Assembly: GCA_021784975.1 (NCBI GenBank) | Contig: JAJYGU010000390.1 | Coordinates: 1 to 50,750 of the forward strand | DNA length: 50,750 bases | DNA from: Planctomycetota bacterium | Lineage (GTDB): Bacteria > Planctomycetota > Planctomycetia > Pirellulales > Thermoguttaceae | Reading direction: 5' to 3' | Shown here: positions 5,334 to 50,750 of the stretch, in pieces | Numbering within the stretch: position 1 is the stretch's first letter | Layout: every line of letters starts with the position of its first letter | Program-made: the position numbers and the translations under genes | Notes under the pieces: model-generated | Told to the model about the DNA's origin: nothing | The model's database searches: none | Seen by the model: only the letters and a program-made list of their open reading frames with translations

Positions 5334-5768
5334 ATGAAAACGAAAACAGCCCTATTGGTGACTGCGGCGCTGGCGCTGTCAGCGGTACCCTGGTCGTCGG
5401 CCCAGGCCGGAATAGGGATTGGCATCGGCATCGGACTGCCCGTGTACGCGCCGCCTCCCGTGTATTACTATCCGCCGCCGTATTACTATCGGCCTTATTA
5501 TGCCCGTCCCTATGCGTACCCCTACTCTTACCGCTACCCTTACCGAGTCTACGTAGCACCCGCTCCCGTGTATAGTGCGCCGGCGCCGGCCTACGTGGCG
5601 CCGACGCCGGTTTATACGCCGCCCGCACCGGCCCCGCAGCCATCTTATTACGGCACGGCGTCGGCCCCCCGTACGTTCGCGCCTACGCCACCCGCCCCGG
5701 TGCCCGCAGCCAATGTGCCCGCTCCGAGTCTGCCGCCGCCGACAAGCTCCGGGCCCGCGATGCAATAA
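5334..5768 (+). CDS. Secreted low-complexity Pro/Tyr-rich protein
   Basis: ATG at 5334 after GGAGGAGGA. Signal peptide MKTKTALLVTAALALSAVPWSSAQA, then GIGIGIGIG, then the run PPPVYYYPPPYYYRPYYARPYAYPYSYRYPY. Confidence 0.6.
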   Translation: MKTKTALLVTAALALSAVPWSSAQAGIGIGIGIGLPVYAPPPVYYYPPPYYYRPYYARPYAYPYSYRYPYRVYVAPAPVYSAPAPAYVAPTPVYTPPAPAPQPSYYGTASAPRTFAPTPPAPVPAANVPAPSLPPPTSSGPAMQ

Positions 5769-10730: not shown

Positions 10731-10851
10731 TGGTAGTCCTTCGATCTGATTGCACCGGGGCGGGTGAGTCCAACTAGTGTAACAGTATATGGGATTTGGG
10801 GCGGCGGGCGAGAGACGGGGCGCGAGGTCGGAGGGGGGAGGCTGGTCCAAG

Positions 10852-10903
10852 GGGGACCGTCCCATTCTTGTGGCGTCCTGCCACAAAAATCGGGACAGTC
10901 CCC
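10852..10903. repeat. Palindromic double-GGGACNGTCCC element, copy 1 (intergenic, in a divergent promoter region)
   Basis: ggggaccgtcccattcttgtggc-gtcct-gccacaaaaatcgggacagtcccc, with 11-bp palindromic boxes at 10853-10863 and 10892-10902. Confidence 0.85.
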
Positions 10904-10976
10904 GCCCCCTACTCACCATTATTTGAATTGTGTTATACTGACTCGTTAGTGTTCGGACCGTTTCTGAAAGGGCAAG

Positions 10977-29886: not shown

Positions 29887-31683
29887 TCATTCCTGCAGAA
29901 TCATCCGCACGAAGAACTGCATCAGTTCTTGCAGGTCGGGCGTAGGAAACTCGGCGGCGGCGGCCAGGGCGCGGTCGCGCAACCTCGCGTACAACTGCTC
30001 AACCTTCGCCAGCGCGCCCGATTCGCAGTAGACCTGGTACACCTGGTCGAGCAACTCGTCGCTGGTCGAGTTCTCCATCAGCTCGGCCAGTTGCGCCAAC
30101 CGCGGTCCATGCCCGCCTTCCGTCGCGAAAATGTGCAACAGAGTGACACGGCCGGCGCGGGCGTCGAGGCCGCGATGCCGCTTGTTGTGTTGGTCTTCTT
30201 GCCAGTCATCGAGGTCGTTACGAACCTGGAACCCTTCGCCGAGATAGGTGGCAAAGCGGCGGAGGATCGTCGGGTCGACGTCCGCTTGGGCCGCCCGCAG
30301 CCCCGCATAGAGGGCCGCCTCGAAGGCCGGGGCCGTCTTCTGCGCGGCGGCCTGCATTGCTTGGGCCGCCGCATAGGGCGGCCGGTGATCCTGGCTTTGC
30401 AGTTCGGCTCCCTGCCCGCGGCACAGTTCCAAGTGGGCGCGCGAAAGCCGGTCGAGAATATCGCCACTGCAATCGGCCCCCAGCGGCACGCTTTGCCCGG
30501 CAATCAGCCGGTAGCCCAGGCCGATGAGGAAATCGCCGACGTTGATGGTCTGGGCCACGCCGTGAATGCGGTGCAGCGTGGGAAGGCCGTAGCGGTAGTG
30601 GTCGTTGTCTTCGATATCGTCGTGGACCAGCGAGGCCTTGTGCAAGGCTTCAATGGCTAAGGCGATGCGGCGGACCGCCACTGGCAGTCGCTCCGCCAGA
30701 TCGCTGCCCGGGTCCGCCTGCTCCAGAACGCCGGTTCCGTGTTTGGCCACCGCATAGGCTGCCAGGGTCACGAACGGCCGCAAGCGTTTGCCGCCCTCTT
30801 GGAGCCATTGCAAGGCTATCTCTTGAACCGTTGGCCCCAAGGGGGGCCGTCCCATTTCCACAGCCTCCTGCCGCGAAAATTGGGACAGTCCCCGTGAACC
30901 GTTACCAAGCTGCCCGGCTAATTCGGCAACCTCGATATAAGGCGCGAGCAGCTCGGCGAACGTCGGCTGGCGAAACATCCGACCGGTCTCGCGGAGCAGA
31001 CCGAGGTAGCTCCGCCGCGAGGTCGGCGTCAAGACCGCCGTCGGCGCGGACTGCGCCGCCAAGAGACTGCGAATCTGGCCGATTTCCGCTTCGGTGTCCT
31101 TGCAACCGTCTCTCAGCAACGGTACGGCGACGTGCGGGATGCCGAGCTCGACGACGCGTTGGAAGGATCGCTCCAGGGAATCGAGGCAGGCGACGCCGAG
31201 GATCGCATCCGCGTCCCCTTCCAACACGCGAAAAAGAACCGACGAGGTGCCTTCCGCCACGATCACCGAGTAGCCCAACTGCTCGGCTTCGGCCTTCAAG
31301 GCGTGGATCTCGCAACTGCCGCAGCCGGCGCAGTGCAGGCCCACGGAATCATAGCTGCCCGCGCACGCGGTCTGGTCGCGCAAGCAATGCGGCAGCAGGA
31401 ACAACCGGCGATGAAGGGCGACAGTCTCGAAGATCGGCAGCCAGAATTCGTTGCTGACCGCTACCATGGTGAAACCAAGTAGAGTCCGCGGCAGCTCCAA
31501 CCGCTGCAAAATCTCCTTGCCGATTTGCTCCAATCCCTCCCGCGACATGGGACGCGAGCGGTCCAGCCCGGCCGCTGCTCGGGCCGCGGCCGAGCGAATC
31601 GCCTGCCGCAGGGTGGCGCTTTCAGGAACGCGCTTGATCTCGTCGTGGCGGCGGTGAGCGGCTTTCAGAGGCTTAGAGGTCAT
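29887..31683 (-). CDS. Fusion protein: DUF116-like Cys-rich domain plus trans-polyprenyl diphosphate synthase domain
   Basis: ATG at 31683 overlaps the cyclase TGA (ATGA). The N-terminal half has LFLLPHCL...CAGCGSCEI...GYSVIVAEGTS...GVAC (DUF116 pattern). The C-terminal half has GKRLRP, LVHDDIEDND (first Asp-rich motif) and FQVRNDLDDW (variant second motif). The track's longer ORF to 32319 is an artefactual extension. Confidence 0.8.
   Translation of the reverse strand: MTSKPLKAAHRRHDEIKRVPESATLRQAIRSAAARAAAGLDRSRPMSREGLEQIGKEILQRLELPRTLLGFTMVAVSNEFWLPIFETVALHRRLFLLPHCLRDQTACAGSYDSVGLHCAGCGSCEIHALKAEAEQLGYSVIVAEGTSSVLFRVLEGDADAILGVACLDSLERSFQRVVELGIPHVAVPLLRDGCKDTEAEIGQIRSLLAAQSAPTAVLTPTSRRSYLGLLRETGRMFRQPTFAELLAPYIEVAELAGQLGNGSRGLSQFSRQEAVEMGRPPLGPTVQEIALQWLQEGGKRLRPFVTLAAYAVAKHGTGVLEQADPGSDLAERLPVAVRRIALAIEALHKASLVHDDIEDNDHYRYGLPTLHRIHGVAQTINVGDFLIGLGYRLIAGQSVPLGADCSGDILDRLSRAHLELCRGQGAELQSQDHRPPYAAAQAMQAAAQKTAPAFEAALYAGLRAAQADVDPTILRRFATYLGEGFQVRNDLDDWQEDQHNKRHRGLDARAGRVTLLHIFATEGGHGPRLAQLAELMENSTSDELLDQVYQVYCESGALAKVEQLYARLRDRALAAAAEFPTPDLQELMQFFVRMILQE
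30843..30893. repeat. Palindromic GGGACNGTCCC element, copy 2 (degenerate left box), inside the DUF116-synthase ORF
   Basis: ggggccgtcccatttccacagcctcctgccgcgaaaattgggacagtcccc is 51 nt long. It is read through in frame as ...GNGSRGLSQFSRQEAVEMGRPPLG... about 15 codons before GKRLRP. Confidence 0.75.
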
Positions 31684-33044
31684 CTGCGGGTTGCTCTGCC
31701 AAGGGCCTCGATCGTCCAGATCAGCGGATACAGCCGTTCCGAGTACCAAAGCCGGGAAAAATACAGGCCGATGGCCGCCGGCCGGTCGCACCCCTGGCGG
31801 ACGTTTGCCACCAGGTACTTCACTCCTCGCGACACGCAGTGGCCGGCCGCCGGATTTTGCGGCCAACCGGCCAGGGCCGCCACGGCCAGCGCCGTCTCCT
31901 CGACCGATGACGCAATGCCGGTGGAGCCGCCCCAGCCGCCGTCGGCGTTTTGCGCGCGGCACAGATATTCTACGCCACCGGCCGCCTGGGCACCATTGCC
32001 GTCGACGATTTCCAAGGCCCGGAGCACCAATGAGGTGCCAATCACCGGATTGTGCTGACCCGGTGCGGCCTGGTTGCCAAACCAGAGCGGCAGCCAAGAG
32101 CCATCGGACTCTTGGACGCGGCCCAGATAGTCCCCTCCGCGGCGGAGTGCGCGCCGCAGCCGGGCGGTCGATACGCGGTGCGTAGAAGGGGACAGTCCCA
32201 TTTTTGCGGCATCCTGCCACAAAAATTGGGACCGTCCCCGGCGGTTGATACCACCCAGGGCGCGGAGCACGTGGGCCGTCACATCCGGGGCGCTGCGGTC
32301 GAAGAGGAGCTTTCCCCATCCACGGCAGAAGGTCGGCCAGCCGCCGTCGCGGTTTTGCAAGTTAAGCAGCCAGTTTACGCCGGCAACGGCGCCGGCGTGG
32401 TGCCCCAGTTCCGCCAGCGCGATCAGGGCCCCGGCCGTGTCATCCGCGTCGGGCACCCCGCCCGGCAGATGCGTCCATGCCCAGGCGCCCGCCGCCGCCT
32501 GCGTGTAGGGGTGCGCGGAGGCCGTTTGTCGAGCGGCGACCCATGGGCCGGTCGTAGGGCAATCAAGTTGTCCTAGCGATCCGGCCGCCGCCAGCGCGGT
32601 AACCGCCGATGTGGTCAGCCATACCGCCAGGTTCGTGTCGATCGGCCAACTGCCGTCGGCCCGCTGCGATTGGCGAAGGAATTGCAGGCAGCGGGCGGCT
32701 ACCGGCTGTTCCGGTCCGAATGACGAAACCAGGCCCATGGCGACGAAGCTGGTTAGCGGGGCCGCATCCAGGAATCCGCCATGTTCCGGCTGAATCTGCT
32801 GAAGCTTCGCCAAGGCCCGCGGCGTCGTCGCTCGCCGTAACGCGCGCAGCAAGCCACTGTGGGGCGGACCATGGTGGTGGATTGCCAGGCCAATGGCAAT
32901 CAGGGCCGGCAGGGCATAGCTGACCACGTGGAGCCGGAGCAGTCTATAGCACCAAGGCGGCAGCACCGACAACTCGAAGGGCAGGCCGGGAACCTCCGGC
33001 CAAGAAACCAACCCGGCCAGGGCGCAGTTCATCAAGATCGGCAC
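31680..33044 (-). CDS. Class II terpene cyclase (squalene-hopene-cyclase-like), C-terminal about 75 percent; same frame as 33066-33488
   Basis: DxDDTA catalytic motif (VPDADDTAG) and QW-like repeats QRADGSWP, QNRDGGWPTF, QESDGSWLPLWFGN, QNADGGWGG. The track start is a GTG with no SD, 21 nt after an in-frame TAG. Confidence 0.8.
   Translation of the reverse strand: MPILMNCALAGLVSWPEVPGLPFELSVLPPWCYRLLRLHVVSYALPALIAIGLAIHHHGPPHSGLLRALRRATTPRALAKLQQIQPEHGGFLDAAPLTSFVAMGLVSSFGPEQPVAARCLQFLRQSQRADGSWPIDTNLAVWLTTSAVTALAAAGSLGQLDCPTTGPWVAARQTASAHPYTQAAAGAWAWTHLPGGVPDADDTAGALIALAELGHHAGAVAGVNWLLNLQNRDGGWPTFCRGWGKLLFDRSAPDVTAHVLRALGGINRRGRSQFLWQDAAKMGLSPSTHRVSTARLRRALRRGGDYLGRVQESDGSWLPLWFGNQAAPGQHNPVIGTSLVLRALEIVDGNGAQAAGGVEYLCRAQNADGGWGGSTGIASSVEETALAVAALAGWPQNPAAGHCVSRGVKYLVANVRQGCDRPAAIGLYFSRLWYSERLYPLIWTIEALGRATRR
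32188..32239. repeat. Palindromic GGGACNGTCCC element, copy 3, inside the cyclase ORF
   Basis: ggggacagtcccatttttgcggcatcctgccacaaaaattgggaccgtcccc. It is translated in frame as ...RRGRSQFLWQDAAKMGLSPS..., between a DVTAHVLRAL helix and the next QW repeat. Confidence 0.85.
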
Positions 33045-35026: not shown

Positions 35027-35992
35027 TCAGCCTCTCCGCTGCATGGCTCGGTCGAGCTGATCCACCAGATCGTCGAGATCGCTGAAGGCCCGCCGCTGGG
35101 CGGATTCGCCGGACTCCTTCGGAGGCGTGTGGGTCATGGCTTCACGCCCCGCGGGCGGGCGGGCGGATTGCGTTAGCTCCGCCAGCGGGCAGCCACATTC
35201 AGGACAGGCGCCGTTGCCCGCCACCGCCGCCCGCGACTTCTTGGCGACCTTTTGGCCGCAGGCCGGACAGGGCCGGCCGGTGCGGGAGTAGAACATCCGG
35301 CGGGCGGCGGCATCGAGGGCCACCAACTTGCCCGGCGCTCCGGCAATGGCCGCGTCCTTCTCATAGAGCGGAAACATAAGGGCGCTTTGCGGGCAGATAC
35401 GTGCGCAGGCCGGACAGCCCGGCTTGCACTGGTCCGGTTGCCGGACCTGGACCTTCCCATCTCCGTCCAACTCGTACACGCCGAATAGACAGAACTGCAA
35501 ACAATGCTGACAGTTGGTGCACCGCGACTGGTCGACCACCGGGTACCAGCGCGGCTTGGTCGGGGCTCGCAATTCTACCAATCGCCCGGCGTCAAAGGGG
35601 GCAGTCCCAGTTTCGCGGCGGTCAACCGCGTGAGTACGGCTAGATCGCTGGCGCCGCGAGAATGGGGATAGTCCCCCGGCCGCGGCGAAGGCCGACTTGG
35701 CGTCGGCAAACGTGCGGAGATCGAGAATGTGCGATTCGGCGAGGTGAATCTGGTGCCGATGTAAGAGCCAGCTCACCGCCCGCGGATGCAACCATCCGAG
35801 CAAGACTGCCTGCTCCACGCCGTCCGCCAATGCCTTCCAGAGCTTGCTCGACTCAGCCAGGTGATACAGCGGCGGCACGACAAGACAATCGACATCCTCG
35901 GCCCCACATCGTTCGATGATGTCCTGCTCGAGCGCGACCGTCCGCGCATCGGGATGCTCGTGCTTCGAGAGAATGATCCGGTTGGGGCGCAT
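35027..35992 (-). CDS. Two-domain protein: unknown N-terminal domain plus 2x[4Fe-4S] ferredoxin domain and a C-terminal CxxC...CxxC tail
   Basis: ATG at 35992. Cluster motifs CTNCQHCLQFC and CKPGCPACARICP, then CPACGQK...CPECGC near the C-terminus. Confidence 0.8.
   Translation of the reverse strand: MRPNRIILSKHEHPDARTVALEQDIIERCGAEDVDCLVVPPLYHLAESSKLWKALADGVEQAVLLGWLHPRAVSWLLHRHQIHLAESHILDLRTFADAKSAFAAAGGLSPFSRRQRSSRTHAVDRRETGTAPFDAGRLVELRAPTKPRWYPVVDQSRCTNCQHCLQFCLFGVYELDGDGKVQVRQPDQCKPGCPACARICPQSALMFPLYEKDAAIAGAPGKLVALDAAARRMFYSRTGRPCPACGQKVAKKSRAAVAGNGACPECGCPLAELTQSARPPAGREAMTHTPPKESGESAQRRAFSDLDDLVDQLDRAMQRRG
35597..35675. repeat. Degenerate palindromic GGGACNGTCCC-type element, copy 7, inside the ferredoxin ORF
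   Basis: ggggcagtcccagtttcgcggcg ... gccgcgagaatggggatagtcccc. It is translated in frame as ...GGLSPFSRRQRSSRTHAVDRRETGTAPF... and links the two domains. Confidence 0.5.
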
Positions 35993-39937: not shown

Positions 39938-40209
39938 CCTTGGGAAGTTTGCAGCGAATACGTCGTCTCTGCGGCCGCGGTAGCGTTACACTCTCGGCAG
40001 GAAACGCCATTTTAATCTCGATGACTTGACGGATCAACATGCGGCGGGACGGTGCCGCGAGGGAGCCAGGCGGTCGAATCGTTACATCGGTCAAGGTCGC
40101 GCCGGAAAGTCGCGACGCAATTTGCCTCGCGGGAAAGTTGCGGGCATATTTGTGATGGGGATCGCCGCCCCGGAATGAATGCCTGTCATTCGTAGGAAGG
40201 AGTCGACCC

Positions 40210-40632
40210 ATGCAATGGAGGGATTGGTTATCCGCGGCCGTGTTGGCCAGCAGCTTGAGCACGGTGACGCTGGCCGCCGCGGCGGATTGCGGCTGTCGCG
40301 GGGCCGCGCTGATGAACTACCCGGGCTACGCCGCCTTGTGCGGGGAGGCGTGTTGCTGCTCGCCGGGTTATGCGCTGGTGCCTGGTTGCTGCGAGAATTA
40401 TAAGCCGTGTTGCGACAATGCCTGGGCGGGCTATTGCGAGCACCGGGCCAAGGTGGACGCCCGCCGGAGTCGGGTGGGGGTGCCTCACGCGGGGCGGCAC
40501 GCGGCGGTGTGCTGCGGGTGGGCCGCCATCGAGACCGAAGAGTCGCCGTTGCAGCCCATCCCGGCCGCTCCGGCTGAGCCGCCGGAAAAGTCTCGCCAAC
40601 GCGCGGCGCCCAACCCAGCGACCGGCAAGTGA
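40210..40632 (+). CDS. Small secreted Cys-rich protein
   Basis: AGGAAGGAG then ATG. Signal peptide MQWRDWLSAAVLASSLSTVTLAAAA. Cys clusters: CGC, CGEACCC, GCCENYKPCCDN, YCEH, VCCG. Confidence 0.65.
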   Translation: MQWRDWLSAAVLASSLSTVTLAAAADCGCRGAALMNYPGYAALCGEACCCSPGYALVPGCCENYKPCCDNAWAGYCEHRAKVDARRSRVGVPHAGRHAAVCCGWAAIETEESPLQPIPAAPAEPPEKSRQRAAPNPATGK

Positions 40633-40647
40633 GGCGGGCAAGTCCAA

Positions 40648-40718
40648 GGGGGACAGTCCCATTTTTGTGGCCGGGCACCGTGCGAAGCATGGTCGCCACA
40701 AAAATCGGGACAGTCCCC
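40648..40718. repeat. Palindromic GGGACNGTCCC element, copy 4 (long-loop variant, intergenic)
   Basis: gggggacagtcccatttttgtggc-[24-nt loop]-gccacaaaaatcgggacagtcccc, with boxes at 40650-40660 and 40707-40717. Confidence 0.85.
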
Positions 40719-40939
40719 GCTTTCCGCTGAATCCCAGCCACGCTTCGGCCGATAACCCGAAATGGACCTGCCGGGAGGGCGGGGCACGCTGTGTCCCGTT
40801 TCAGGATTCGAGATCATGGCGACCATGGATCGGCTGCCATGATCTTTTCTATGGCTTGCGACGGAAAGCGAATCCGACGTTCTTCGCGGACGACGGTCGG
40901 TGTCTCCTCAGGCCGTTGCGCGTATCGTTTGCCGGCCGC

Positions 40940-42322
40940 CTACTTGGCCAATTGCTGCCAGAGCGATTGCGCCTCTTGCCGCTGCAAGAAGGGCCCTTTG
41001 GTCTTCAGGGCCGATTCGAGCAGTTGCCGGGCATCGCGGTCGCGGCCGCGATCGACCGAGAGGCGGGCGAGATAGAATTTGGTGTCGGCATCCATGGCGC
41101 CGTTGGAGGCCACCACCCCGAGGACCCGTTCGGCCTCGTCCAGCCGCCCCAGCTTGTAGAGCACCCAACCGTAGGTCGAAATGGCGTCGGCCCGGTTGCG
41201 AAATTGCCGCACGTTCGCGGCCGCGTACTCCAGGGCCTTCTGCTTCTTGGCCTCATCCTTCTGCTCGACCAGCGCCAGGGCAAGGTAGTTGGCGGCGGCG
41301 AAATCGCCGGGCGCCTGCAAGTGAGCCGACTCGAAATACATTTCCGCCGTGTCGTAGTCCTTTTGGAACAAAGCCACCAGGCCGCTGAGGACCTTGACGC
41401 CCAGCGACTTGGGATCGAGTTTCATGGCGGCGTCGGCCTGAGCCTTGGCCTCGCCAAGGTCCCCGCTCTGAAACGCCCACTGGGCCGCCATCAGCCGGAT
41501 CTTGACATCCTTGGGAGCGGCGCTGAGGGCCGCCGTCAGCCACTTCTTCGCATTGACTTGATCGCCGGCTTGCCGAAAGAACTGGGCGACGGTGGCCTCC
41601 GGGAGCATCGCTTCAGGATTGCCCTTGGCCGCCCGGCGAAGCTTGTCCAACGCGCCGGCAGTGTCCTTCTGTTCGAACCGGCAGCGGGCCAGTCGCTGCA
41701 AGGCCACCCCATTGTTCGGATCGAGCGTCAGCCAGACTTCGAGCTGCTTCTGGGCGGACCGCCAGTCGCCATGGGCCTCGGCTACCGAAGCCAAACCGCC
41801 GCAGACCATCGGCCGCATGGCCTTCTTCCGCTTGGCACTCTTGGTGAACCGATTCAGCAGGCTGTCAGCCTTTTCAAACAGCAGGCCGGCCTCCGTGATC
41901 CGCCCCTCGCGGACTGCCATATCTCCCAGATACAGATAGGCCTCGGGATCATCGGGGGTCTCAAACGTGGCCTTTTCCAGGCACGCCCGCGTCCCGGCGG
42001 CAAGGTTGCTTCGCGAGAACAACTGGGCCAGGATAACCTGGGCCGGCGGCATGTCGGGATCCTTCTTGGCCGCTTCGGCCAGCAGCTTCAGCGCCCCTTC
42101 AACATCGCGGGCTTGGAAGCGTGCGATGGCTGCGGCGATCTCGGGGTTCTGCGCTGCCGCCGGCTTCGCAGTTCCGGCCGGGGCCGACTTGCCCAAATCG
42201 CTCTCCGAGATGGGGTCGGCCGACAGGCGGGCGGCTGCCGCCGCCAACACCAGAACCAGGACTCCGCCGCCCACCACCAACCGCGAAATAACCATTCGCA
42301 TATCGTTCCTCTCGAATGTCAT
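40940..42322 (-). CDS. Secreted TPR-repeat protein
   Basis: Signal segment MRMVISRLVVGGGVLVLVLAAAAARLSA, then multiple 34-aa TPR-like units (A..Y..LG..).. The start could be 42322, 42301 or 42295. Confidence 0.75.
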   Translation of the reverse strand: MTFERNDMRMVISRLVVGGGVLVLVLAAAAARLSADPISESDLGKSAPAGTAKPAAAQNPEIAAAIARFQARDVEGALKLLAEAAKKDPDMPPAQVILAQLFSRSNLAAGTRACLEKATFETPDDPEAYLYLGDMAVREGRITEAGLLFEKADSLLNRFTKSAKRKKAMRPMVCGGLASVAEAHGDWRSAQKQLEVWLTLDPNNGVALQRLARCRFEQKDTAGALDKLRRAAKGNPEAMLPEATVAQFFRQAGDQVNAKKWLTAALSAAPKDVKIRLMAAQWAFQSGDLGEAKAQADAAMKLDPKSLGVKVLSGLVALFQKDYDTAEMYFESAHLQAPGDFAAANYLALALVEQKDEAKKQKALEYAAANVRQFRNRADAISTYGWVLYKLGRLDEAERVLGVVASNGAMDADTKFYLARLSVDRGRDRDARQLLESALKTKGPFLQRQEAQSLWQQLAK

Positions 42323-42605
42323 CGCAAACTCCAAGCCACCCGCCAGCCGCGAGAAACACGCCGTAACCGACACCATAAATCTAGCCTACGGCAAGCGTCC
42401 CCGATTGGCAAGACGACGGACCGTCGGCTTGGCGAAACCGCTCGCCGTGCGCGCGGCTCAAGGCGTTGGCCAAACTGGTGATACGTACACCACCATGCAG
42501 AGTTATACCAACCGGCTCACGGTAGCTTCCCCTTGGGGACCACTTCTGCTACGTTGGTGATCGTGGTTCGTCTGTCCAGGTTTCCTTTGCATAAGGAGAG
42601 TTCCG

Positions 42606-43040
42606 ATGAGGCGAATGATTGGGGTGCGAATGGCGACGATGCTGCTAACCGGTTTGGTGGTGGTGTGGGCGGCCACACAGTCGGCGCCTGGCGCCGACAA
42701 CAATCCCGGCGCGCCGGCCAAAACCGGCAAGAAAACCAGGGCTTCGTCGAACCGTCTGCCGCGGTACTTCAGCAAAGTGGTTGATAAGCAACAGCGCGAA
42801 AAGATCTACACGATTCAGAACGAGTACCGGCCCAAGATCGCCGCTGCCCGCAAAGTCTTGACCGACCTGCTGAAGCAGCAGAGCGACAAGATGCTGGCCG
42901 TGCTCACGCCGGAGCAGCAGAAGCAGGTTCAAGACGCCGCCGCCAGCGCGAAAAAGAAGAGGTCCGCCGCGGCTTCCAGCAAACGCACCGCCGGGCAACC
43001 GGCCGGCTCCAAACCGGCAGCCGCGACCGCCGCCAAGTAG
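42606..43040 (+). CDS. Secreted LTxxQ-motif (Spy/CpxP-like) protein
   Basis: AAGGAGAG then ATG. A signal peptide, a helical basic body, and LTPEQQKQV. Confidence 0.6.
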   Translation: MRRMIGVRMATMLLTGLVVVWAATQSAPGADNNPGAPAKTGKKTRASSNRLPRYFSKVVDKQQREKIYTIQNEYRPKIAAARKVLTDLLKQQSDKMLAVLTPEQQKQVQDAAASAKKKRSAAASSKRTAGQPAGSKPAAATAAK

Positions 43041-43202
43041 CCGGATTCATCATCGCTGTCCCTTGTAAGGCAAGCATCGGGCAGATATGATTCTTGCGCG
43101 TTTAAGGGAGGATGGAGTCCCTCTGAAATCGCCGGCGTTCCGGCTGATGACTCCTACCAGGGCGAATCATCCCTCGGTGGGGGCCAAGGGGCGAATTAGG
43201 TG

Positions 43203-43237
43203 GCTCCCGCAGGGCAAGCCCGGCGGGAGCTTTTTTT
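43203..43237 (+). terminator. Strong intrinsic terminator
   Basis: gctcccgc-agggcaagcccg-gcgggagc followed by TTTTTTT (43231-43237). Confidence 0.75.
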
Positions 43238-43330
43238 CGAATGGGCTAGCAGCAGTAGTCGGAAATCGGCGGCCAGGGAGGCCCGTGCCCACGCCCGCGA
43301 AAGCTCCGCAGATAGTAGCCGACGATGCTA

Positions 43331-43430
43331 AGCGGCCGTCCAAGAACAAGTTGGGGACTGTCCCAATTTTCGTCCGACGAAAATGGGACTGTCCCCTTGG
43401 CGAAAGTGGAAGTTGTTGCTGGACGGCCGC
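43331..43430 (+). mobile_element. 100-bp MITE-like palindromic element, copy A (contains two GGGACTGTCCC boxes)
   Basis: It is the exact reverse complement of 46788-46887. The internal palindrome is ggggactgtcccaattttcgtc/gacgaaaatgggactgtcccc. The near-palindromic outer ends are gcggccgtccaagaacaa / ttgttgctggacggccgc. Confidence 0.85.
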
Positions 43431-43504
43431 TAACTCCGCTGCACAAGAACGTCCTGCTTACCGGTTTTCTGGACGTTGAGAACCGGCTGAAGCAAATGGT
43501 CAAA

Positions 43505-43672
43505 TCACTCCTTTTCTTCCCGCTCGCAATCTTCCTCCCGGCCTTGAAGCCAGCCATCGTGCCAAACGGAGGCTTCGTCGGAGTCGCGCGGGTAGGGATT
43601 GTCGCTCAACTCGGTCCCGACCCAATACGCATCATAACCTTCCACATAGGTGTCCTTCGTGACGCTGGACAT
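43505..43672 (-). CDS. Ribosome-modulation-factor (Rmf)-like small protein
   Basis: AAGGAGA then ATG at 43672. GYDAYWVGTELSDNPYP....WHDGWLQGRE follows the Rmf pattern GY.AG..G....CPY....W..GW. Confidence 0.55.
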   Translation of the reverse strand: MSSVTKDTYVEGYDAYWVGTELSDNPYPRDSDEASVWHDGWLQGREEDCEREEKE

Positions 43673-43829
43673 TTGAGTTCTCCTTTCGGGCGAAAACCAC
43701 TCGGCTGCCAACTCACGATCCCTGCGGCATCGGTGAGTACCGCGTGCCCCGGGATTAACATGACCGTGAGAATTGTATGCCCACGCACAGACCGGTCAAC
43801 GCGCCTGGCCCCTGAACGCGCAGACATTT

Positions 43830-43859
43830 GGAGTGCGGTGATTTATCACCGCTTTTCTG
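43830..43859 (+). repeat. GGAGTGCGGTGAT..ATCACCGCTTTTCTG hairpin element (one of three related copies)
   Basis: Stem 43835-43842 / 43845-43852 plus TTTT. Related copies occur at 20479-20502 (plus orientation) and 20575-20604 (minus orientation). Confidence 0.6.
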
Positions 43860-43980
43860 AACCGGCGGAAAGATTGCTATACGATTTTTAGGTGAACCTC
43901 GACTGGCGCCCGTGTTGCGGAGAACGCCGGAAAAGCGGCAACAAATTGCCGACTCCAAAGAAAGCTCGCTTGTTTAAGGC

Positions 43981-44664
43981 CTAGCGGCCCAGAACGCCTA
44001 CCAGGCCCTCGACGACGTGGTTCGGCAGCGGGGCCGAGCGTAGCAGTTCGGCGGTGCGGCCCACGTCGTAAGGGATCCGTTTCAGGTGCATCTGGCCATC
44101 GCGAAATACCGCGTAACAGGCTTGGCCGTGAATATCGCGGGCCAGGCCGACGCTGCCGGGATTGACCACCGTCCGCTTGCCGAACGTCCGTATGCCTTGG
44201 ACGTGGGTGTGGCCCAGAAGCACAAAGTCGCCGTCCAACTCCGCGACTCGCGAGCCCCACTGGTCCATGCTGAGATATTCAAACAGATCGCCCTGCGGAG
44301 TCGCGTGGGCCATGCGGAAGTGCCGCCCCTCCCATTGAAAAAGGTCCACCACCTGCATGGTGCGCAAGAATTCGCATTCGTCGTCGCTCAACAGCGTGCG
44401 GTGCCAGGCGCGAGTGGCCAGCGAATACTCGCGGAAAGTTCCCATGCAGCGGCAGTCCACCCCGTAGCCCAAGGCGTTGTCGTGGTTTCCCCGGACAAGG
44501 TGGTCGGCGTTTTCTCTCAGCCAGCGGAGACATTCCGCCGGCTGCGGCCCGTAATCAACCACGTCCCCGCAGAATACCACTGCATCGTGTTCGGGCTCGG
44601 CTGCCAGCACCGCCTCCAGGGCTGGCCAGTTGCCGTGGATGTCGGACAAAATCAACAAGGTCAT
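43981..44664 (-). CDS. Metallophosphoesterase (YfcE/MJ0936-like)
   Basis: Motifs LSDIHGN, CGDVVDYG, GNHD, GHTH. Its ATG overlaps the MFS stop (ATGA at 44661-44664). Confidence 0.9.
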   Translation of the reverse strand: MTLLILSDIHGNWPALEAVLAAEPEHDAVVFCGDVVDYGPQPAECLRWLRENADHLVRGNHDNALGYGVDCRCMGTFREYSLATRAWHRTLLSDDECEFLRTMQVVDLFQWEGRHFRMAHATPQGDLFEYLSMDQWGSRVAELDGDFVLLGHTHVQGIRTFGKRTVVNPGSVGLARDIHGQACYAVFRDGQMHLKRIPYDVGRTAELLRSAPLPNHVVEGLVGVLGR

Positions 44665-46259
44665 GTTGTCTCCAATGCGGACCTGGGGTGAAGGACGCGT
44701 CGCGCCAGCGTCCCTACGATGGTGATGCCGGCCAGCAGAAGGGCGGCCTGGCAGAAGCTGCCGTACATTTCGGCGTAGGTCAGGTTGTCGGCCTGGTAGT
44801 TGACTGCCCGGTAGAAGAGCGAGCGGGCCTTGCGTTCGGCCACGCTGGGTGAGGCCCCGGATTGGACCAGCACCTCTTGCAATCGGGCCATCTCGGCCGA
44901 GAGCTCCGCGGCTTGGGTGGTGCCGACGTTCTCAGAAACGTAAACATACTGGGTTTGATGTCCGATGATCAGCCAGGTCACCAGCAGCCCGATGGACAGG
45001 CCACCGGCCATCGTCTGGAAGACCGGAAATAGCTGCCGAATATGCAGTTCAACGCTGGTTCGGCGAGAGACCATGGCGGTCAGCGAGGCGAACAGCCAAC
45101 CGAGGCCGAAGCCGGTGACGGCACGGCCCGGGGCCAGTTGCCAATGGAGCGGGGCCATAAACCAATCCAGGCGCATCGTATTTTCCACCCGCCAAAAGGG
45201 CCAGTCCATGGTGGTGCGGTTCAACAGCCACATTCCCAGGGCCAAGATCAACAAGCCCGAGACCGCGCCCCCGCTGCCCAAGGGGCGGCGGCGGAGCCAG
45301 AGGCTGGCGATGGCCAGCGCTAAGGCGGTGCCGATCGGCATCGACCAGACGAGCCAGGAGCGTTGCCACACATCGTAATTGATCAGCAGCCCGCTGTAGA
45401 TCGTCATGGTGGTGCCGTGGAAGAATTGGACGGCCCCGGCGAAGGCCATCAAGCCCAGGCGGAGTCCATTCTCGCGGACCGCTGCCAAGTCGAGCGCTCC
45501 GCGGAGCAGCCAGCACGTGCCAACCAGGCCGAGGCCGCCGGCCGCATAGGCGAGGAGGACCAGCGGACTTTCTGACCAACCTTGAAGCTGTCCCCAATGG
45601 AGGCAGTACCAGCCGGCAGCCACGGCGAGGACCAGCCAGGGCAAGTACAGAATCGGCCCGGCAGGCAACAGACGCGGCGGCTGGGCAGCCTTCGTCGGGG
45701 GCATCGCCAGGACCGCCGCGAAGCACACCAGCCCCAAGAGCCCCTCGAAAAGGAATCCGCCCTCCCAAGCCGCCGTCCCGTAGAGAAAACTTGCCCCGCC
45801 GATCAACGGTGCTCCCAGCGGCGGCAGGAGGATCGCCGCCCAGGCGACCGTGCGGTCCCAACGCGGCTCCAAGAGCATCGGGGTGTAGAAGAGCACCAGC
45901 CCGCCGCCGATGCCCGCCAGCACCCGGCCGGTCAGAAATCCCCATAGCGGCCACTCGACGAAGAAGCCGTTCAGCGCCGAGCCGCCCGCGAAGGCCGCCA
46001 ATCCGAACAAGACCGGGCCGCGGAAACCGAGCCATGGAAAATGACGCAAGAGGTGGGGACTGGCCAACAAGGTCAAGGCGATGGCCAACAGATAGCCGCT
46101 GTGGAGACTATAGGCCTCGGCCGTGACCCAGCCGCGGGCGTTGTACATTTCCCGGAAGTTCAGCGTATGGCCGGCGGTGGTCAACCAGATCACTGCGATG
46201 GCCGCCAAGGGCGCCGCCGCCAATAGCCGGTCCCAGAGAGAACTGGCGCGCGCGATCAT
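44661..46259 (-). CDS. MFS efflux transporter (14-TM DHA2/EmrB-like)
   Basis: ATG at 46259 (the track ORF extends to 46469 over the neighbouring gene). About 14 hydrophobic segments. It is encoded downstream of HlyD and TolC-like genes. Confidence 0.8.
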   Translation of the reverse strand: MIARASSLWDRLLAAAPLAAIAVIWLTTAGHTLNFREMYNARGWVTAEAYSLHSGYLLAIALTLLASPHLLRHFPWLGFRGPVLFGLAAFAGGSALNGFFVEWPLWGFLTGRVLAGIGGGLVLFYTPMLLEPRWDRTVAWAAILLPPLGAPLIGGASFLYGTAAWEGGFLFEGLLGLVCFAAVLAMPPTKAAQPPRLLPAGPILYLPWLVLAVAAGWYCLHWGQLQGWSESPLVLLAYAAGGLGLVGTCWLLRGALDLAAVRENGLRLGLMAFAGAVQFFHGTTMTIYSGLLINYDVWQRSWLVWSMPIGTALALAIASLWLRRRPLGSGGAVSGLLILALGMWLLNRTTMDWPFWRVENTMRLDWFMAPLHWQLAPGRAVTGFGLGWLFASLTAMVSRRTSVELHIRQLFPVFQTMAGGLSIGLLVTWLIIGHQTQYVYVSENVGTTQAAELSAEMARLQEVLVQSGASPSVAERKARSLFYRAVNYQADNLTYAEMYGSFCQAALLLAGITIVGTLARRVLHPRSALETT

Positions 46260-46269
46260 TCTGGTCACC

Positions 46270-46812
46270 TCACTCGCCGTGCAGCAGCCTTTCCCGCGGG
46301 AACATTCCATTGATCCACGCCAGTAGCAGCCCCTGCGGAGTCTGCAAGGTGAGCGTCGGCCGGTAGGGATGGTCGAGGCCGGCACGCTCCAGTCGCCCGG
46401 CCAACTCCTCATAGATGCCGGCGATGAACTTCTCCTGTTGCTCCGCGCCGAGCTCGCCCCAGCCTGCACCGGTGGTGAGAATCACCGGTAGACGCGGCTC
46501 TTGTTGGTAAACTCCGACGCCGTAGGGCAGAAGGGTTTGGGCGACCGGCAGGACCTCGGTGCGGCTGAACAGCGGACGGCCTTTAGGGCTCCTGTTGGCG
46601 GTCTGCACCCAACGCTGGAATTCCTCTGCGACGCGAAGCAGCTTAGGCTCGCTGATGACCGAACGAAGGTATGCCGGCGGAAGGCTTTCCGGCTGGCCTT
46701 CCGGAACATTCGGAGAAGGCTGGCCGCAACCGGACAAGATCACCAACATCAGGCCCGCAACGGCTGCCTGCTTCGCAACGCTCCTGAGCGGCCGTCCAGC
46801 AACAACTTCCAC
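46270..46812 (-). CDS. Lipoprotein of unknown function
   Basis: Lipobox LSGC. GTG at 46812 (inside the element copy) gives MEVVAGRPLRSVAKQAAVAGLMLVILSGC. The only in-frame ATG (46749) leaves an 8-aa signal, which is too short. Confidence 0.5.
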   Translation of the reverse strand: MEVVAGRPLRSVAKQAAVAGLMLVILSGCGQPSPNVPEGQPESLPPAYLRSVISEPKLLRVAEEFQRWVQTANRSPKGRPLFSRTEVLPVAQTLLPYGVGVYQQEPRLPVILTTGAGWGELGAEQQEKFIAGIYEELAGRLERAGLDHPYRPTLTLQTPQGLLLAWINGMFPRERLLHGE

Positions 46813-46887
46813 TTTCGCCAAGGGGACAGTCCCATTTTCGTCGGACGAAAATTGGGACAGTCCCCAACTTGTTCTTGGACGGCCGCT
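46788..46887 (-). mobile_element. 100-bp MITE-like palindromic element, copy B
   Basis: It is the exact reverse complement of 43331-43430. It lies between two co-directional genes of the efflux operon. Confidence 0.85.
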
Positions 46888-46913
46888 AAGCACTGTTGGC
46901 TGGGGCATGCTAT

Positions 46914-47669
46914 TCACTTCCGCGCCGGCAGGTCGGGGGCATAAATGGTGAACGGGGTAGTGGCGGGCAGCGGCCGGTAGGAGCACTTGCCCACCACAAC
47001 CTGAAAGCTATCGCCGGGCTGTAAGGTGGCCTCCGCCCCGTGTTGCACGCCGATATAGGCGACGGCCGCCAGCAGGCCGATGCCCGCCCCGCTGCCAATC
47101 AACACCGGGTTGCTCTGGGCCAGTTGGGCGCCGAGGGCGGCCCCGATTCCGGCCCCCTCGAATTCCAGAAGCAGGCTGAGCATCTGCCGCTTCATGAGGG
47201 TGCTCCAGCGGCGGTCGTTCATGTCGATCGAGACGGCGCGGGGCACCGGGTATTTCTCATCCGTGGCTACCAGTTCCAGCAGGGTGATCTCCAGGTGTCC
47301 AGGCCGGCGAAAGGTCCCCGGGGGATGAATTTGCGTAATCGTGCCGCCCAGCAAGATACCGCACGGCACGCCGCCTCGCAGGACCTCGGCCACGAAGCGG
47401 TCTCCGGCCATCAAAGGCGGCCGGCTGTTGAGCACTCGTTCGCCGGGGCTGAGCGAATCGCAGGGGACCACCTCGCGGACCTTCAGGTCCAAGGTCTGCC
47501 CGGCGCCGAGCAACCCCGCGTCCGCACCGGCTGAAGTAACGGGCCGCCCACCGGCGCCCACTCCCCGTCCTCCGCTGTCGTCGCTCCGAGCTCTTGGCGA
47601 GGGGAACGAGACAACCAACAGCCAGCCACAGGCGATAAGAGCCACGATCAGTCGAAGTTCATCGCGCAT
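46914..47669 (-). CDS. Hypothetical membrane/secreted protein with a Gly-zipper segment
   Basis: ATG at 47669. N-terminal TM segment LIVALIACGWLLVV and C-terminal GAGIGAALGAQLAQSNPVLIGSGAGIGLLAAVAYIG. Confidence 0.6.
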   Translation of the reverse strand: MRDELRLIVALIACGWLLVVSFPSPRARSDDSGGRGVGAGGRPVTSAGADAGLLGAGQTLDLKVREVVPCDSLSPGERVLNSRPPLMAGDRFVAEVLRGGVPCGILLGGTITQIHPPGTFRRPGHLEITLLELVATDEKYPVPRAVSIDMNDRRWSTLMKRQMLSLLLEFEGAGIGAALGAQLAQSNPVLIGSGAGIGLLAAVAYIGVQHGAEATLQPGDSFQVVVGKCSYRPLPATTPFTIYAPDLPARK

Positions 47670-47697
47670 CTTGTGCCTTTCCGATCAATGGGTGCCG

Positions 47698-49305
47698 TTA
47701 CTGAAAAAGCCCCGCCAGCCAACTGCTCTTTTTCGGAGCTTCCTGGGGCGGACACGGAGGAACTACGTGCTCGACGTAATCCAGCAGCAATTCGGTGGCC
47801 CGGAGCACGTCCAGCCGGGCAAGCTGCAGGTTGTACCACGCCGTCCAGCGATTGGCGTCCGCCTGCACGACGTTCAGCCGCGCCCCCAACACGTCGAGCA
47901 CGATCGCCTGGCGGTTTTGATACCGCTGGACCTGGCGGGCATACTGCTGGCTGGCCAGTTCCACCTCGGTTTCCTTCTGCTGCCAATTCTGGATGGCCAG
48001 TTGCCACTGGTCCCAGGAGTTGCCGGCATCGACGGCCACGTCCACCAAGGCTTTTTCCAAGTCCAACTCCGAGCGGACCACGTCGAGCTTGGCGCGCCGT
48101 AAATTAGCCCAGAGGCCCACGTCGAAGGCCGGGATTTCATCGTAGAAGCCGAACACCAGCCCGAGCGAAGTTGGGCCGCTGAGCTCGCGATTGGCCAGCC
48201 CCAACGGCAGCGTGCCCAGCCCGAGGAACCGCAGGACGCTCCGCTGCTGTTGCAGCCGGGCAATGGTCACGCCCTCCAGCAGCATCCGCACCTCGAAACG
48301 CTGCCGTTTGGCCAGGGCGACCGCTTCTTGCCGGCTGGCAGGGAAGTTCGCAACGCAGTGCAGGTCGATCGGCTCGGCATCGGCCAGGTCGAACTCGAAA
48401 TCCTCTTGCGGCCCAATCGGCAGCGGGCCACGATCCTGGGGCACCAGCAGCCGGCTGCGGTGCATCACCGAACCCAGCTCCCGCTGGGTCTGCCGTTGGT
48501 CCCGCTGAAGGGCCGCTAAGTTGACGCGGACCTTGCCCTGGTCGATCCGCGCCTGCTCGACCTCAATCGGATACGCCTGCCGTTCTTCCAGCCGGTGTTG
48601 GAGCACGGAGACCGTTTGGTCGGCCACCTGCACCCCCAATTCCGCCACGTGGAGATGGTAGAGCACCTGCTTGGCGTCGAAGTAGCGCTGAGCGACCAAC
48701 ACCATCTGACTGCGGCGGACGAGTTGTTCCGCGATCTGCTTGAACTGGATGCCGTGCTCGGCGATCGGCAGGGCGGTGATCTGGCCCGAGGGGTCCAGCG
48801 GGAAGAACAGGTTGACCCCGTTGGAGGCCACCCGGTCCAAGCCGGGAAAACCGTTGAAGGTCGAACCGCTAAAGGTGATGCCCGGAAAGGCGATTTGCGG
48901 CACCCCCACGCCCTCCGCCCGCCAAAGCCCGTAGGCCAGTTGCGGCATGGACGCCAGCGGAAGAAACGACTTCAGGGCCTCGAACTTCGCCACCGCGGCT
49001 GTACGGGTGGCTACCTGAGCCTGGACGACCTGGACGGCGGCCAGCCCGGAGGCGAAGGCGTCGCTGAGATGAAGGACTCCCGGATGCAGGCTCGTCGAAA
49101 GGGGCGGAGGGGCCGGGATGGGCTCCGGCCTTTTCTCGTCGCCCAAGGCTGGCTTGCCGAGTACAATGGCCAGACCAGCCAGAGCTGCCGAGCAGGCGGT
49201 TGCCCACGGGCGCAAAACGTGCGTGCCTCGACGCAGCGTGCGACCTGCGACGGGGAAGAATGCAAAATGAAAATTGAAAACTGAAAATTGAAAATTGAAA
49301 ATCAT
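47698..49305 (-). CDS. TolC-family outer-membrane efflux protein
   Basis: Two repeated coiled-coil/beta modules typical of OEP proteins. The ATG at 49305 lies inside an A/T heptamer repeat, so TTG at 49215 (MRPWATACSAALAGLAIVLG) is a plausible true start. Confidence 0.8.
   Translation of the reverse strand: MIFNFQFSVFNFHFAFFPVAGRTLRRGTHVLRPWATACSAALAGLAIVLGKPALGDEKRPEPIPAPPPLSTSLHPGVLHLSDAFASGLAAVQVVQAQVATRTAAVAKFEALKSFLPLASMPQLAYGLWRAEGVGVPQIAFPGITFSGSTFNGFPGLDRVASNGVNLFFPLDPSGQITALPIAEHGIQFKQIAEQLVRRSQMVLVAQRYFDAKQVLYHLHVAELGVQVADQTVSVLQHRLEERQAYPIEVEQARIDQGKVRVNLAALQRDQRQTQRELGSVMHRSRLLVPQDRGPLPIGPQEDFEFDLADAEPIDLHCVANFPASRQEAVALAKRQRFEVRMLLEGVTIARLQQQRSVLRFLGLGTLPLGLANRELSGPTSLGLVFGFYDEIPAFDVGLWANLRRAKLDVVRSELDLEKALVDVAVDAGNSWDQWQLAIQNWQQKETEVELASQQYARQVQRYQNRQAIVLDVLGARLNVVQADANRWTAWYNLQLARLDVLRATELLLDYVEHVVPPCPPQEAPKKSSWLAGLFQ
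49268..49302. repeat. Five tandem heptamers TGAAAAT/TGAAAAC
   Basis: tgaaaat tgaaaac tgaaaat tgaaaat tgaaaat: an A/T island between the HlyD and TolC-like genes. Confidence 0.8.
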
Positions 49306-49362
49306 TTCATTACGTCTACTAACCCTTCACCAGGCCCCAGCCCGCGGAACGCCCCACGCCCC

Positions 49363-50736
49363 TCACCACCGTCCGGCTGCCTTCTGGTTCTCATGGCGGA
49401 CCAAGCGAGTAGTGTCGATGGTGATCCGCGCCGACATCCCCGGCCGAATACGCATCTGCCAATTCTCCTTTTCGGTAAAGCGGATACGGACTGGCAGTCG
49501 CTGCACCACGCGGGTGAAATTGCCGGTCGCATTATCGGGCGGAAAGAGCGAGAACACCGCGCCTGTCCCTCCCTCCACGCTCTCCACGTAGCCGCCAAAC
49601 TCCCGACCGGGAATCCCGTCCAGCCGGATGCGGACCGGCTGGCCGATCTGCACCCCGGCCATCTGTTCTTCCCGCAAGTTGGCCACGATCCAGACATTGT
49701 TGAAGTCCAAAGGCACAATGCTCAGAAACGCTTGTCGAGCGGCCAGGGTCTGGCCCAACTGGATAGTCCGCCGGCTCACGATTCCGGCCTGGGGCGCGCG
49801 GACCAGCGTGTAGCCCAGGCGGAGCTTGGCTTCCCGCAACTTCGCCTCGGCTTGGGTCACCTTGTTGGCCTGGGCCAATGCGGCCGCCTCGGCTACCTTC
49901 GGTTGGAGCTGGGTGGCCTGGGCCTGGCCGAGCCCTGCCCGGACCTGCTCCAACTGATTTTGGGTCTGCCCCACTTTGACGGTCGCCTGGTTGAGGGAAA
50001 CCTTGTCCGCAGCCACCTGGCGTTCGGCGGCCGCCATGTTCGCTCGCAGCGCCGCCAGCCGCGCCTGGGCGTCCCGCCAGGCCGCCTGTTTGTCGTCGAA
50101 CGCCTGCCCGGAAACCGCCCCGGCGGCTGCTAGTCGGGCAAATCGCTGTTGATAATCGCGGGCATTCTCCAACAGGGCTTCCAGGCCGGGCGCCTGGGCC
50201 CGCAACGCATCGAGCGCTTGGCCGTCTTTTTCCAACAGATAGCGCTTGCTATCCACGTCGAGGCGGGCGGCCTGCAGTAGCCGCTCGTACTCGGGGACCT
50301 TCGCCTGCGCGCCTTGCAGCACTGCCGCCTGGTTTTGCGTGTTTAGCCGGACGGTCGTTTCCGCCGCCAAGGCATCGGCCTTCGCTTGCGCCAGGTCGGC
50401 GGTTGCCTGATCGACGGCGATCTGATAAGGAATTGGATCCAATTGCGCCAGCGGCTCTCCTGATCGGACCACCATGTTGTCGTCCGTGTACAGGGCCACC
50501 ACCTGGCCGGCCACCTCGGCGCCGATTGGGGTGATATTGCCCACCACGTAGGCATTGTCGGTGGAGACGTTGATGCGCGATTGCCGCCACCACCAGAAGC
50601 CGCCGGCCGCCAGCAGGACGAGTAATGCTGCCAACAAGATTCCCCCCGCCCAGCGGGTCAGCTTCTCGACGGCCGCCCGAGAACGCACCGAGGGGCGGGG
50701 CCTTCGCGAAACCGCATTCGCCGGAGCGTGGGACAT
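49363..50736 (-). CDS. HlyD-family membrane fusion protein (EmrA-like)
   Basis: An N-terminal TM segment, then NAYVVGNITPIGAEVAGQVVALYTDDNMVVRSGEPLAQLD (biotinyl-lipoyl-like hairpin), a long coiled coil, and a C-terminal beta-barrel domain. Confidence 0.9.
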   Translation of the reverse strand: MSHAPANAVSRRPRPSVRSRAAVEKLTRWAGGILLAALLVLLAAGGFWWWRQSRINVSTDNAYVVGNITPIGAEVAGQVVALYTDDNMVVRSGEPLAQLDPIPYQIAVDQATADLAQAKADALAAETTVRLNTQNQAAVLQGAQAKVPEYERLLQAARLDVDSKRYLLEKDGQALDALRAQAPGLEALLENARDYQQRFARLAAAGAVSGQAFDDKQAAWRDAQARLAALRANMAAAERQVAADKVSLNQATVKVGQTQNQLEQVRAGLGQAQATQLQPKVAEAAALAQANKVTQAEAKLREAKLRLGYTLVRAPQAGIVSRRTIQLGQTLAARQAFLSIVPLDFNNVWIVANLREEQMAGVQIGQPVRIRLDGIPGREFGGYVESVEGGTGAVFSLFPPDNATGNFTRVVQRLPVRIRFTEKENWQMRIRPGMSARITIDTTRLVRHENQKAAGRW

Positions 50737-50750
50737 GCGAGCACCTCAGG

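Follow-up and report, generated by a model that had tools for sequence, protein, structure and literature searches.

The named bacterial transposable elements of the miniature inverted-repeat type (MITEs), among them Correia/NEMIS of Neisseria, ERIC/YPAL, RUP and Nezha, have been reviewed (PMC10969869). Rickettsia palindromic elements (RPEs) are of similar size, lie in frame within functional genes and add a stop-free peptide to the product, and other MITEs have also been reported to make in-frame fusions (PMC3733652, PMC10969869). The present analysis concerns two perfect inverted repeats in a stretch of 50,750 nt from a Planctomycetota bacterium (GenBank assembly GCA_021784975.1, contig JAJYGU010000390.1; referred to throughout as the window), which bracket 3.36 kb of a predicted efflux-pump operon. 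The two arms are very probably independent, recent insertions of one non-autonomous MITE with ISAzo13-type ends, the segment between them being native and in its ancestral orientation. That the copies are inverted relative to each other and enclose 3.36 kb is incidental on this reading.

As in MITEs generally, the window element is about 100 nt long, has terminal repeats matching those of an insertion sequence, lacks coding capacity, carries a short target duplication and occurs in dispersed copies; a strong hairpin when transcribed and frequent location inside operons are further shared traits. Its ISAzo13-family ends and 3-bp duplication set it apart from the named MITEs. In behaviour it is nearest to RPEs and to the MITEs that make in-frame fusions. 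To our knowledge, RPEs lack a recognized transposase partner as well as clear end repeats and target duplications, whereas the window element has transposase-family ends and a target duplication, its host is a free-living planctomycete, and only three in-gene copies are documented so far. Homology to the RPE families of Rickettsia is unlikely in view of its insertion-sequence-type ends.

By direct comparison, positions 43331-43431 are the exact reverse complement of 46787-46887 over 101 nt, so that the perfect inverted repeats of the original prediction, which ended the arms at 43430 and 46788, are real and one nucleotide longer than the 100 claimed. A repeat search of the window returned arms of 115 nt (43317-43431 and 46787-46901, 97 % identical); beyond the exact 101 nt, the outer side agrees in a further 10 of 14 bases, and on the inner side similarity ends abruptly. 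The 44-nt core has two exact matches in the window against 0.00 expected (100 shuffles). Each arm is a whole small element. Its core (GCGGCC...GGCCGC) measures 99 nt, is bounded by terminal inverted repeats of 21-22 nt and contains a nested hairpin, and a target duplication of 3 bp accompanies it; the features are as follows.

43332..43430, + strand: MITE copy 1, 99-nt core (GCGGCCGTCCAAGAACAAGTT ... AAGTTGTTGCTGGACGGCCGC), intergenic, 73 nt beyond the rmf stop codon
43329..43331: left TAA of the copy 1 target-site duplication (right TAA at 43431-43433), a perfect direct repeat
43353..43396, + strand: inner nested hairpin of copy 1, GGGGACTGTCCCAATTTTCGTCCGACGAAAATGGGACTGTCCCC, a member of the genome's hairpin family resembling repetitive extragenic palindromic (REP) sequences
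46788..46886, - strand: MITE copy 2 (99-nt core, no difference from copy 1), in frame after lipoprotein codon 7
46785..46889, - strand: copy 2 with its flanking triplets, TTA ... TCA (- strand), one mismatch
46270..46908, - strand: lipoprotein gene, 212 aa as called, signal peptide interrupted by 34 MITE-encoded residues

The core has no coding capacity of its own and falls within the size range of MITEs (about 50-300 bp). The terminal repeats GCGGCCGTCCAAGAACAAGTT and GCGGCCGTCCAGCAACAACTT agree in 18 of their 21 positions, and each arm is a nested palindrome in which the outer GCGGCCGTCCAAGAACAAGTT and AAGTTGTTGCTGGACGGCCGC enclose the inner GGGGACTGTCCCAATTTTCGTCCGACGAAAATGGGACTGTCCCC. Folded as RNA, the element gave a free energy (dG) of -58 to -64 kcal/mol with a z-score of about -8. 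It matched no Rfam family in a permissive-threshold scan of 40000-50750, in which only the fluoride riboswitch was found. The left flanks of the two copies (43317-43330 and 46888-46901) match at 10 of 14 positions, the three other copies described below sharing no such flank, and each flank holds an in-frame start codon (ATG 43325; GTG 46893) at an equal distance from the element.

Both copies are also carried by a contig (L001) of a metagenome-assembled genome (MAG; GCA_027342305.1) that is 99.9 % identical to the window over 16.8 kb. Contigs from other samples include the whole of copy 1 with both flanks (L002), half of copy 1 (L004) and the first 24 nt of copy 2 entered from its outer flank (L031).

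Further copies were sought by comparing the six translations of the element with a protein database, which returned, besides the lipoprotein, several more called proteins carrying the peptide; two of these were fetched as DNA. Three extra copies, 93-99 % identical, were found in this way on two other contigs (L038 and L040) of the same MAG.

L038 3598-3698: MITE copy, 100/101 identical, flanks TAA/TAA
L040 4247-4347: MITE copy, 96 % identical, flanks ATA/ATA
L040 6285-6386: MITE copy, 93 % identical, flanks TAA/TAA
Window copy 1: flanking triplets TAA/TAA
Window copy 2: flanking triplets TTA/TCA

The organism therefore has at least five copies on three contigs (two in the window and L001, one in L038 and two in L040), and four of the five are bounded by perfect 3-bp direct repeats. 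TAA was considered as a part of the terminal repeat and ruled out by the ATA/ATA copy, which indicates that the triplets are target duplications and not terminal-repeat sequence. Copies of the family differ from one another by 0-7 nt. Together, the core and one triplet make 102 nt, which equals 34 codons. In none of the six frames do the three most similar copies contain a stop codon. Additional proteins matched the MITE peptide (P0068, P0070 and P0072). In P0068 a MITE copy is followed by the peptide SAVIHHRF, similar to one encoded at a window hairpin, 43835-43852 (GCGGTGATTTATCACCGC, then a T-run), which may belong to another small repeat family.

The family of the element ends was established from loci elsewhere that carry the same arms. 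An exact-pattern scan with the outer arms covered 185,579 species genomes, of which a single one, a Planctomycetota MAG (L005), matched; a separate scan of metagenomes returned 19 loci, and a scan of viral contigs added none beyond those found otherwise. The match to that MAG alone indicates that the source species, or its repeats, are absent from the genome collection. On one metagenome contig (L029) the arms lie 1.66 kb apart in inverted orientation and bound a 1685-bp element with terminal repeats of about 34 nt, whose reading frames encode an ISAzo13-family transposase (PF07592, E 7.7e-112; NF033519, E 4e-117). In an alignment, the terminal 21 nt of the window element are the same as those of both L029 ends. 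The window arms thus carry the terminal 21 nt of an autonomous ISAzo13-type element, which identifies the window element as a MITE. It resembles the ISAzo13-family insertion sequences ('Rhodopirellula transposase', PF07592) in these terminal 21 nt, and differs from them in that it has no transposase gene, shares just 21 nt per end and has an unrelated hairpin as its interior. No description of an ISAzo13-derived MITE was found in a literature search.

Five whole elements of 98-100 nt were present on five unrelated metagenome contigs, and a sixth was cut by a contig end; they share the arms of the window element but have another GC-rich hairpin inside. In the Planctomycetota MAG (L005, 38-250), two adjacent MITE-like units combine the parts differently: in one, the inner hairpin of the window element stands between other arms, and in the other the arms are those of the window element and the hairpin is not. 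Judged from the sequence, this arrangement is modular, like the mosaic of a bacterial interspersed mosaic element (BIME).

Copy 2 lies within a protein-coding gene. The lipoprotein gene starts at ATG 46908 and runs for seven codons, which are followed by TTA, the 99-nt core and TCA, and then by RSVAKQAAVAGLMLVILSGC. In-silico removal of 102 nt gave MPQPTVLRSVAKQAAVAGLMLVILSGC, a signal peptide with a canonical lipobox. The original prediction placed the lipoprotein gene between the repeats, whereas copy 2 is inside the gene, after codon 7, and not upstream of it. Candidate alternative in-frame starts (TTG 46821 and GTG 46812) lie inside the element. In the closest relative (L008, pump 74 % identical) the corresponding sequence reads TGA, 5 nt, ATG and MLNQRTILCLIAALLATIMSAC, with no element; the orthologues in L008, L009 and L010 all lack the insertion and so represent empty sites, and in L008 and L009 the gene begins 5-9 nt past the upstream stop codon.

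Two of the three copies on L038 and L040 likewise lie in frame within genes. The GNAT acetyltransferase P0073 aligned with PDB entry 4ubr_A in two blocks (residues 5-81 with 3-78, and 116-171 with 79-135), showing a clean 34-residue insertion directly before the R-x-x-G-x-G motif (motif A), where 4ubr_A is contiguous. In the BioD-like protein P0071, the MITE peptide falls within a segment missing from E. coli BioD; about 35 further residues stand beside the peptide and may be an older insertion. The placement in the lipoprotein, GNAT and BioD-like genes, as predicted from their reading frames, is in frame and stop-free in the manner of RPEs.

These findings suggest a mechanism in which an ISAzo13-type DDE transposase encoded elsewhere would move the MITE in trans, inserting it at AT-rich triplets (TAA, TTA, ATA) and duplicating 3 bp. 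As the net gain is 102 nt, stop-free in the three most similar copies, a hit in a gene adds 34 residues rather than causing truncation, and the preserved frame and lack of a stop codon may be the reason why genic copies are tolerated. Copy 2 has in this way entered the n-region of the lipoprotein signal peptide, and copy 1 has settled in the spacer beyond rmf. Likely effects would be a very stable RNA hairpin within a polycistronic mRNA and a lipoprotein signal peptide that is lengthened or re-started; the hairpin may possibly also affect mRNA stability or the translational coupling of the 251-aa gene and the lipoprotein gene.

Several observations weigh against independent insertion of a tolerated, in-frame MITE. 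The search through called proteins favours copies inside open reading frames (ORFs). The flanking triplets of copy 2 differ by one base (TTA/TCA), and the left flanks of the two window copies (10/14) are more alike than independent insertion predicts. The stop-free state was rejected as a hallmark of the family, since it is not family-wide and is not shared by relatives with other inner hairpins; sediment-type relatives have 1-3 stops, and of stretches of 101 nt taken at random here, 3.6 % are free of stops. Finally, tblastn with the L029 transposase matched neither the window nor any of the loci fetched for this organism.

The genes and regulatory sites around the two copies are listed below.

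43099..43163, + strand: fluoride riboswitch aptamer number 3, with a promoter-like site at 43063-43091 and a terminator hairpin plus T-run at about 43203-43237
43505..43672, - strand: rmf-like gene, 55 aa, with its own promoter-like site at 43799-43772
43981..44664, - strand: metallophosphoesterase gene, start overlapping the pump stop codon (ATGA)
44661..46259, - strand: 532-aa inner-membrane transporter with an EmrB-like major facilitator superfamily (MFS) fold
46914..47669, - strand: conserved 251-aa gene, stop codon 5 nt before the lipoprotein ATG, as in L008
47698..50736, - strand: OEP (TolC-like) gene (47698-49305) and HlyD-type adaptor gene (49363-50736), outside the bracketed segment

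The pump had no match in Pfam or in a PDB sequence search. Its structural model (pLDDT 89) was nearest in fold to EmrB of the EmrAB-TolC complex (8zal_J, TM 0.68/0.73), and its earlier description as an EmrB-like MFS protein is accordingly right as to fold but finds no backing in the Pfam and PDB sequence searches. On the strength of this model, the operon is EmrAB-TolC-like and lies behind fluoride riboswitches. L008 and L009 carry, on a single strand and in this order, Usp, HlyD, OEP, a gene of about 250 aa, lipoprotein and pump, and in L010 the pump comes first, directly behind a fluoride riboswitch. Fluoride riboswitches (RF01734, 37-49 bits) precede the operon, or the pump gene itself, in all four of these lineages.

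L001: fluoride riboswitches at 1783-1860 and 3804-3876
L008: fluoride riboswitches at 2785-2862 and 5517-5589
L009: fluoride riboswitch at 1709-1781
L010: fluoride riboswitch at 1766-1840

No paper linking fluoride riboswitches with tripartite MFS pumps was found in the literature search. The third riboswitch of the window (43099-43163) is gene-less and points towards copy 1 and the 3' end of rmf; read-through from it would be antisense to rmf. A neighbouring 144-aa gene was considered as an explanation for this riboswitch and rejected, because its homologues (L041 and L042) have other neighbours and no riboswitch.

The original prediction had proposed that the arms might recombine to invert the segment, giving phase variation. 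Such an inversion, with RecA-dependent recombination between the 101-nt arms flipping the lipoprotein-pump-metallophosphoesterase-rmf block in part of the population, is very unlikely. It would take the block out of the HlyD-OEP transcription unit and put it behind the orphan fluoride riboswitch of the opposite strand. Arms that match perfectly for 101 nt do allow rare RecA-mediated inversion, and flipping the block in silico produced an intact 207-aa lipoprotein frame from ATG 43325, directly behind the promoter-like site, riboswitch (43099-43163) and terminator; the pump gene of L010, moreover, stands directly behind a fluoride riboswitch. All three informative assemblies (the window, the MAG contig L001 and strain L002) nevertheless share the native orientation, the 14-nt outer flank of L002 agreeing with that of copy 1 at all four positions that separate the two flanks. 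Exact-protein look-ups with the rmf, lipoprotein, 251-aa and 144-aa genes retrieved no contig with the inverted arrangement, most contigs ending at the repeats or close to them. Four independent short-read assemblies of this organism have contigs that end inside a copy or within about 60 nt of one (L002, L004, L031, L033, L034 and L035), which might be taken as a sign of inversion, but breaks at repeats are the usual behaviour of short-read assemblers and are silent on orientation.

Recombination inside the elements would split both target duplications, and the intact TAA/TAA of copy 1 counts against it. The lipoprotein frame runs through copy 2 without a break, and taking out 102 nt restores it; relatives that lack the element have the same gene order. 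Over 20.7 kb of L001 around the locus, the precomputed Pfam annotations of called genes include no recombinase family. The invertible systems fimS, hin and the Bacteroides invertons likewise have inverted repeats flanking a DNA segment; their short repeats, dedicated recombinase and occurrence in both orientations were not seen here, the arms being ordinary copies of a dispersed MITE. The in-silico flip that places the block behind the orphan riboswitch (ATG 43325) is the sole support left for inversion, and it is not unusual to meet a start codon in frame within so short a distance. A single orientation and independent insertions, the contrary outcome described in the original prediction, are what was found. 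Co-option of the two MITE copies for a rare RecA-driven inversion, in which they would serve as arms and the pump block would toggle between two fluoride-riboswitch units, is very unlikely.

Local inverted duplication or gene conversion, instead of transposition, as the origin of the identical arms is highly improbable. The two window copies show no differences, compared with 1-7 nt for the other copies, and the similarity of their flanks runs for 14 nt on one side; the boundaries of the arms, however, are those of the element, with 3-bp duplications, and only 1 nt separates them from the copy in L038, a different contig, near-identity being normal in this young family. Gene conversion, which had been put forward as the alternative to recent transposition to account for the perfect identity, is not needed, as 0-7 differences are usual among family copies; recent transposition itself is borne out, both arms belonging to a multi-copy MITE family whose insertions duplicate 3 bp of target.

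There is only a slim chance that the bracketed 3.36 kb has travelled, or could travel, as one unit with the two MITE copies through a transposase working on the outermost ends, as the proposal of a composite element would require. Each copy has both of the ends recognized by a transposase, and on the + strand TAA forms the outermost flank on either side, although TAA is the commonest target and matching outer triplets are expected by chance. As in Tn5 and Tn10, several genes stand between two copies of a mobile element in inverted orientation; unlike in those transposons, the cargo is native and syntenic with relatives, one copy lies in a gene that extends outside the bracket, and copy 1 has its own matched duplication. 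The first seven codons of the lipoprotein gene, and its 5-nt spacing from the upstream gene, lie outside the bracket, and the gene is continuous across copy 2. The comparison of synteny that had been recommended as a check gave the same answer, the element-free relatives L008 and L009 keeping the order of 250-aa gene, lipoprotein and pump. An assembly artefact is a negligible prospect: palindromic repeats can cause mis-joins in short-read assemblies, but two long contigs (the window and L001) agree, and L002 and L031, from other samples, independently confirm the junctions.

Like REP sequences and BIMEs, the element includes a hairpin of a dispersed extragenic palindrome family, and mosaic adjacent units occur in L005; unlike them, it is a 99-nt unit with insertion-sequence-type ends and a target duplication, and no RAYT transposase was seen. 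At least five more REP-like hairpins (GGGGACAGTCCCATTTTTGTGGC ... GCCACAAAAATNGGGACAGTCCCC) are present in the window, at 10848-10906, 30843-30896, 32186-32241, 35596-35678 and 40647-40721. Most are stop-free, so that ORFs run through them, as exemplified by 29890-32361, which merges a DUF116 and a polyprenyl synthetase gene, and one copy lies inside a called 321-aa gene. Clear interruption of genes by the plain REP-like hairpins was considered and rejected, those at 30843-30896 and 32186-32241 lying between or ahead of Pfam domains. Peptides of the inner hairpin (LSQFSSDENGTVP and GDCPNFRPTKMGLSP), sometimes repeated, were also seen in P0074, P0075 and P0076 of other metagenomic planctomycete-like contigs, one of these being a rhodanese-domain protein.

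For annotation, the arms should be read neither as a switch nor as a composite transposon, and the 212-aa lipoprotein model includes 34 transposon-encoded residues. The pump operon behind fluoride riboswitches, in four related lineages, may be of more interest to the riboswitch and fluoride-resistance field than the repeats. The net length of 102 nt and the stop-free sequence permit in-frame residence in a signal peptide, at GNAT motif A and in a BioD-like gene. The element is a planctomycete counterpart of the RPE phenomenon with an identifiable transposase family, which makes the tolerance of proteins for such elements testable.

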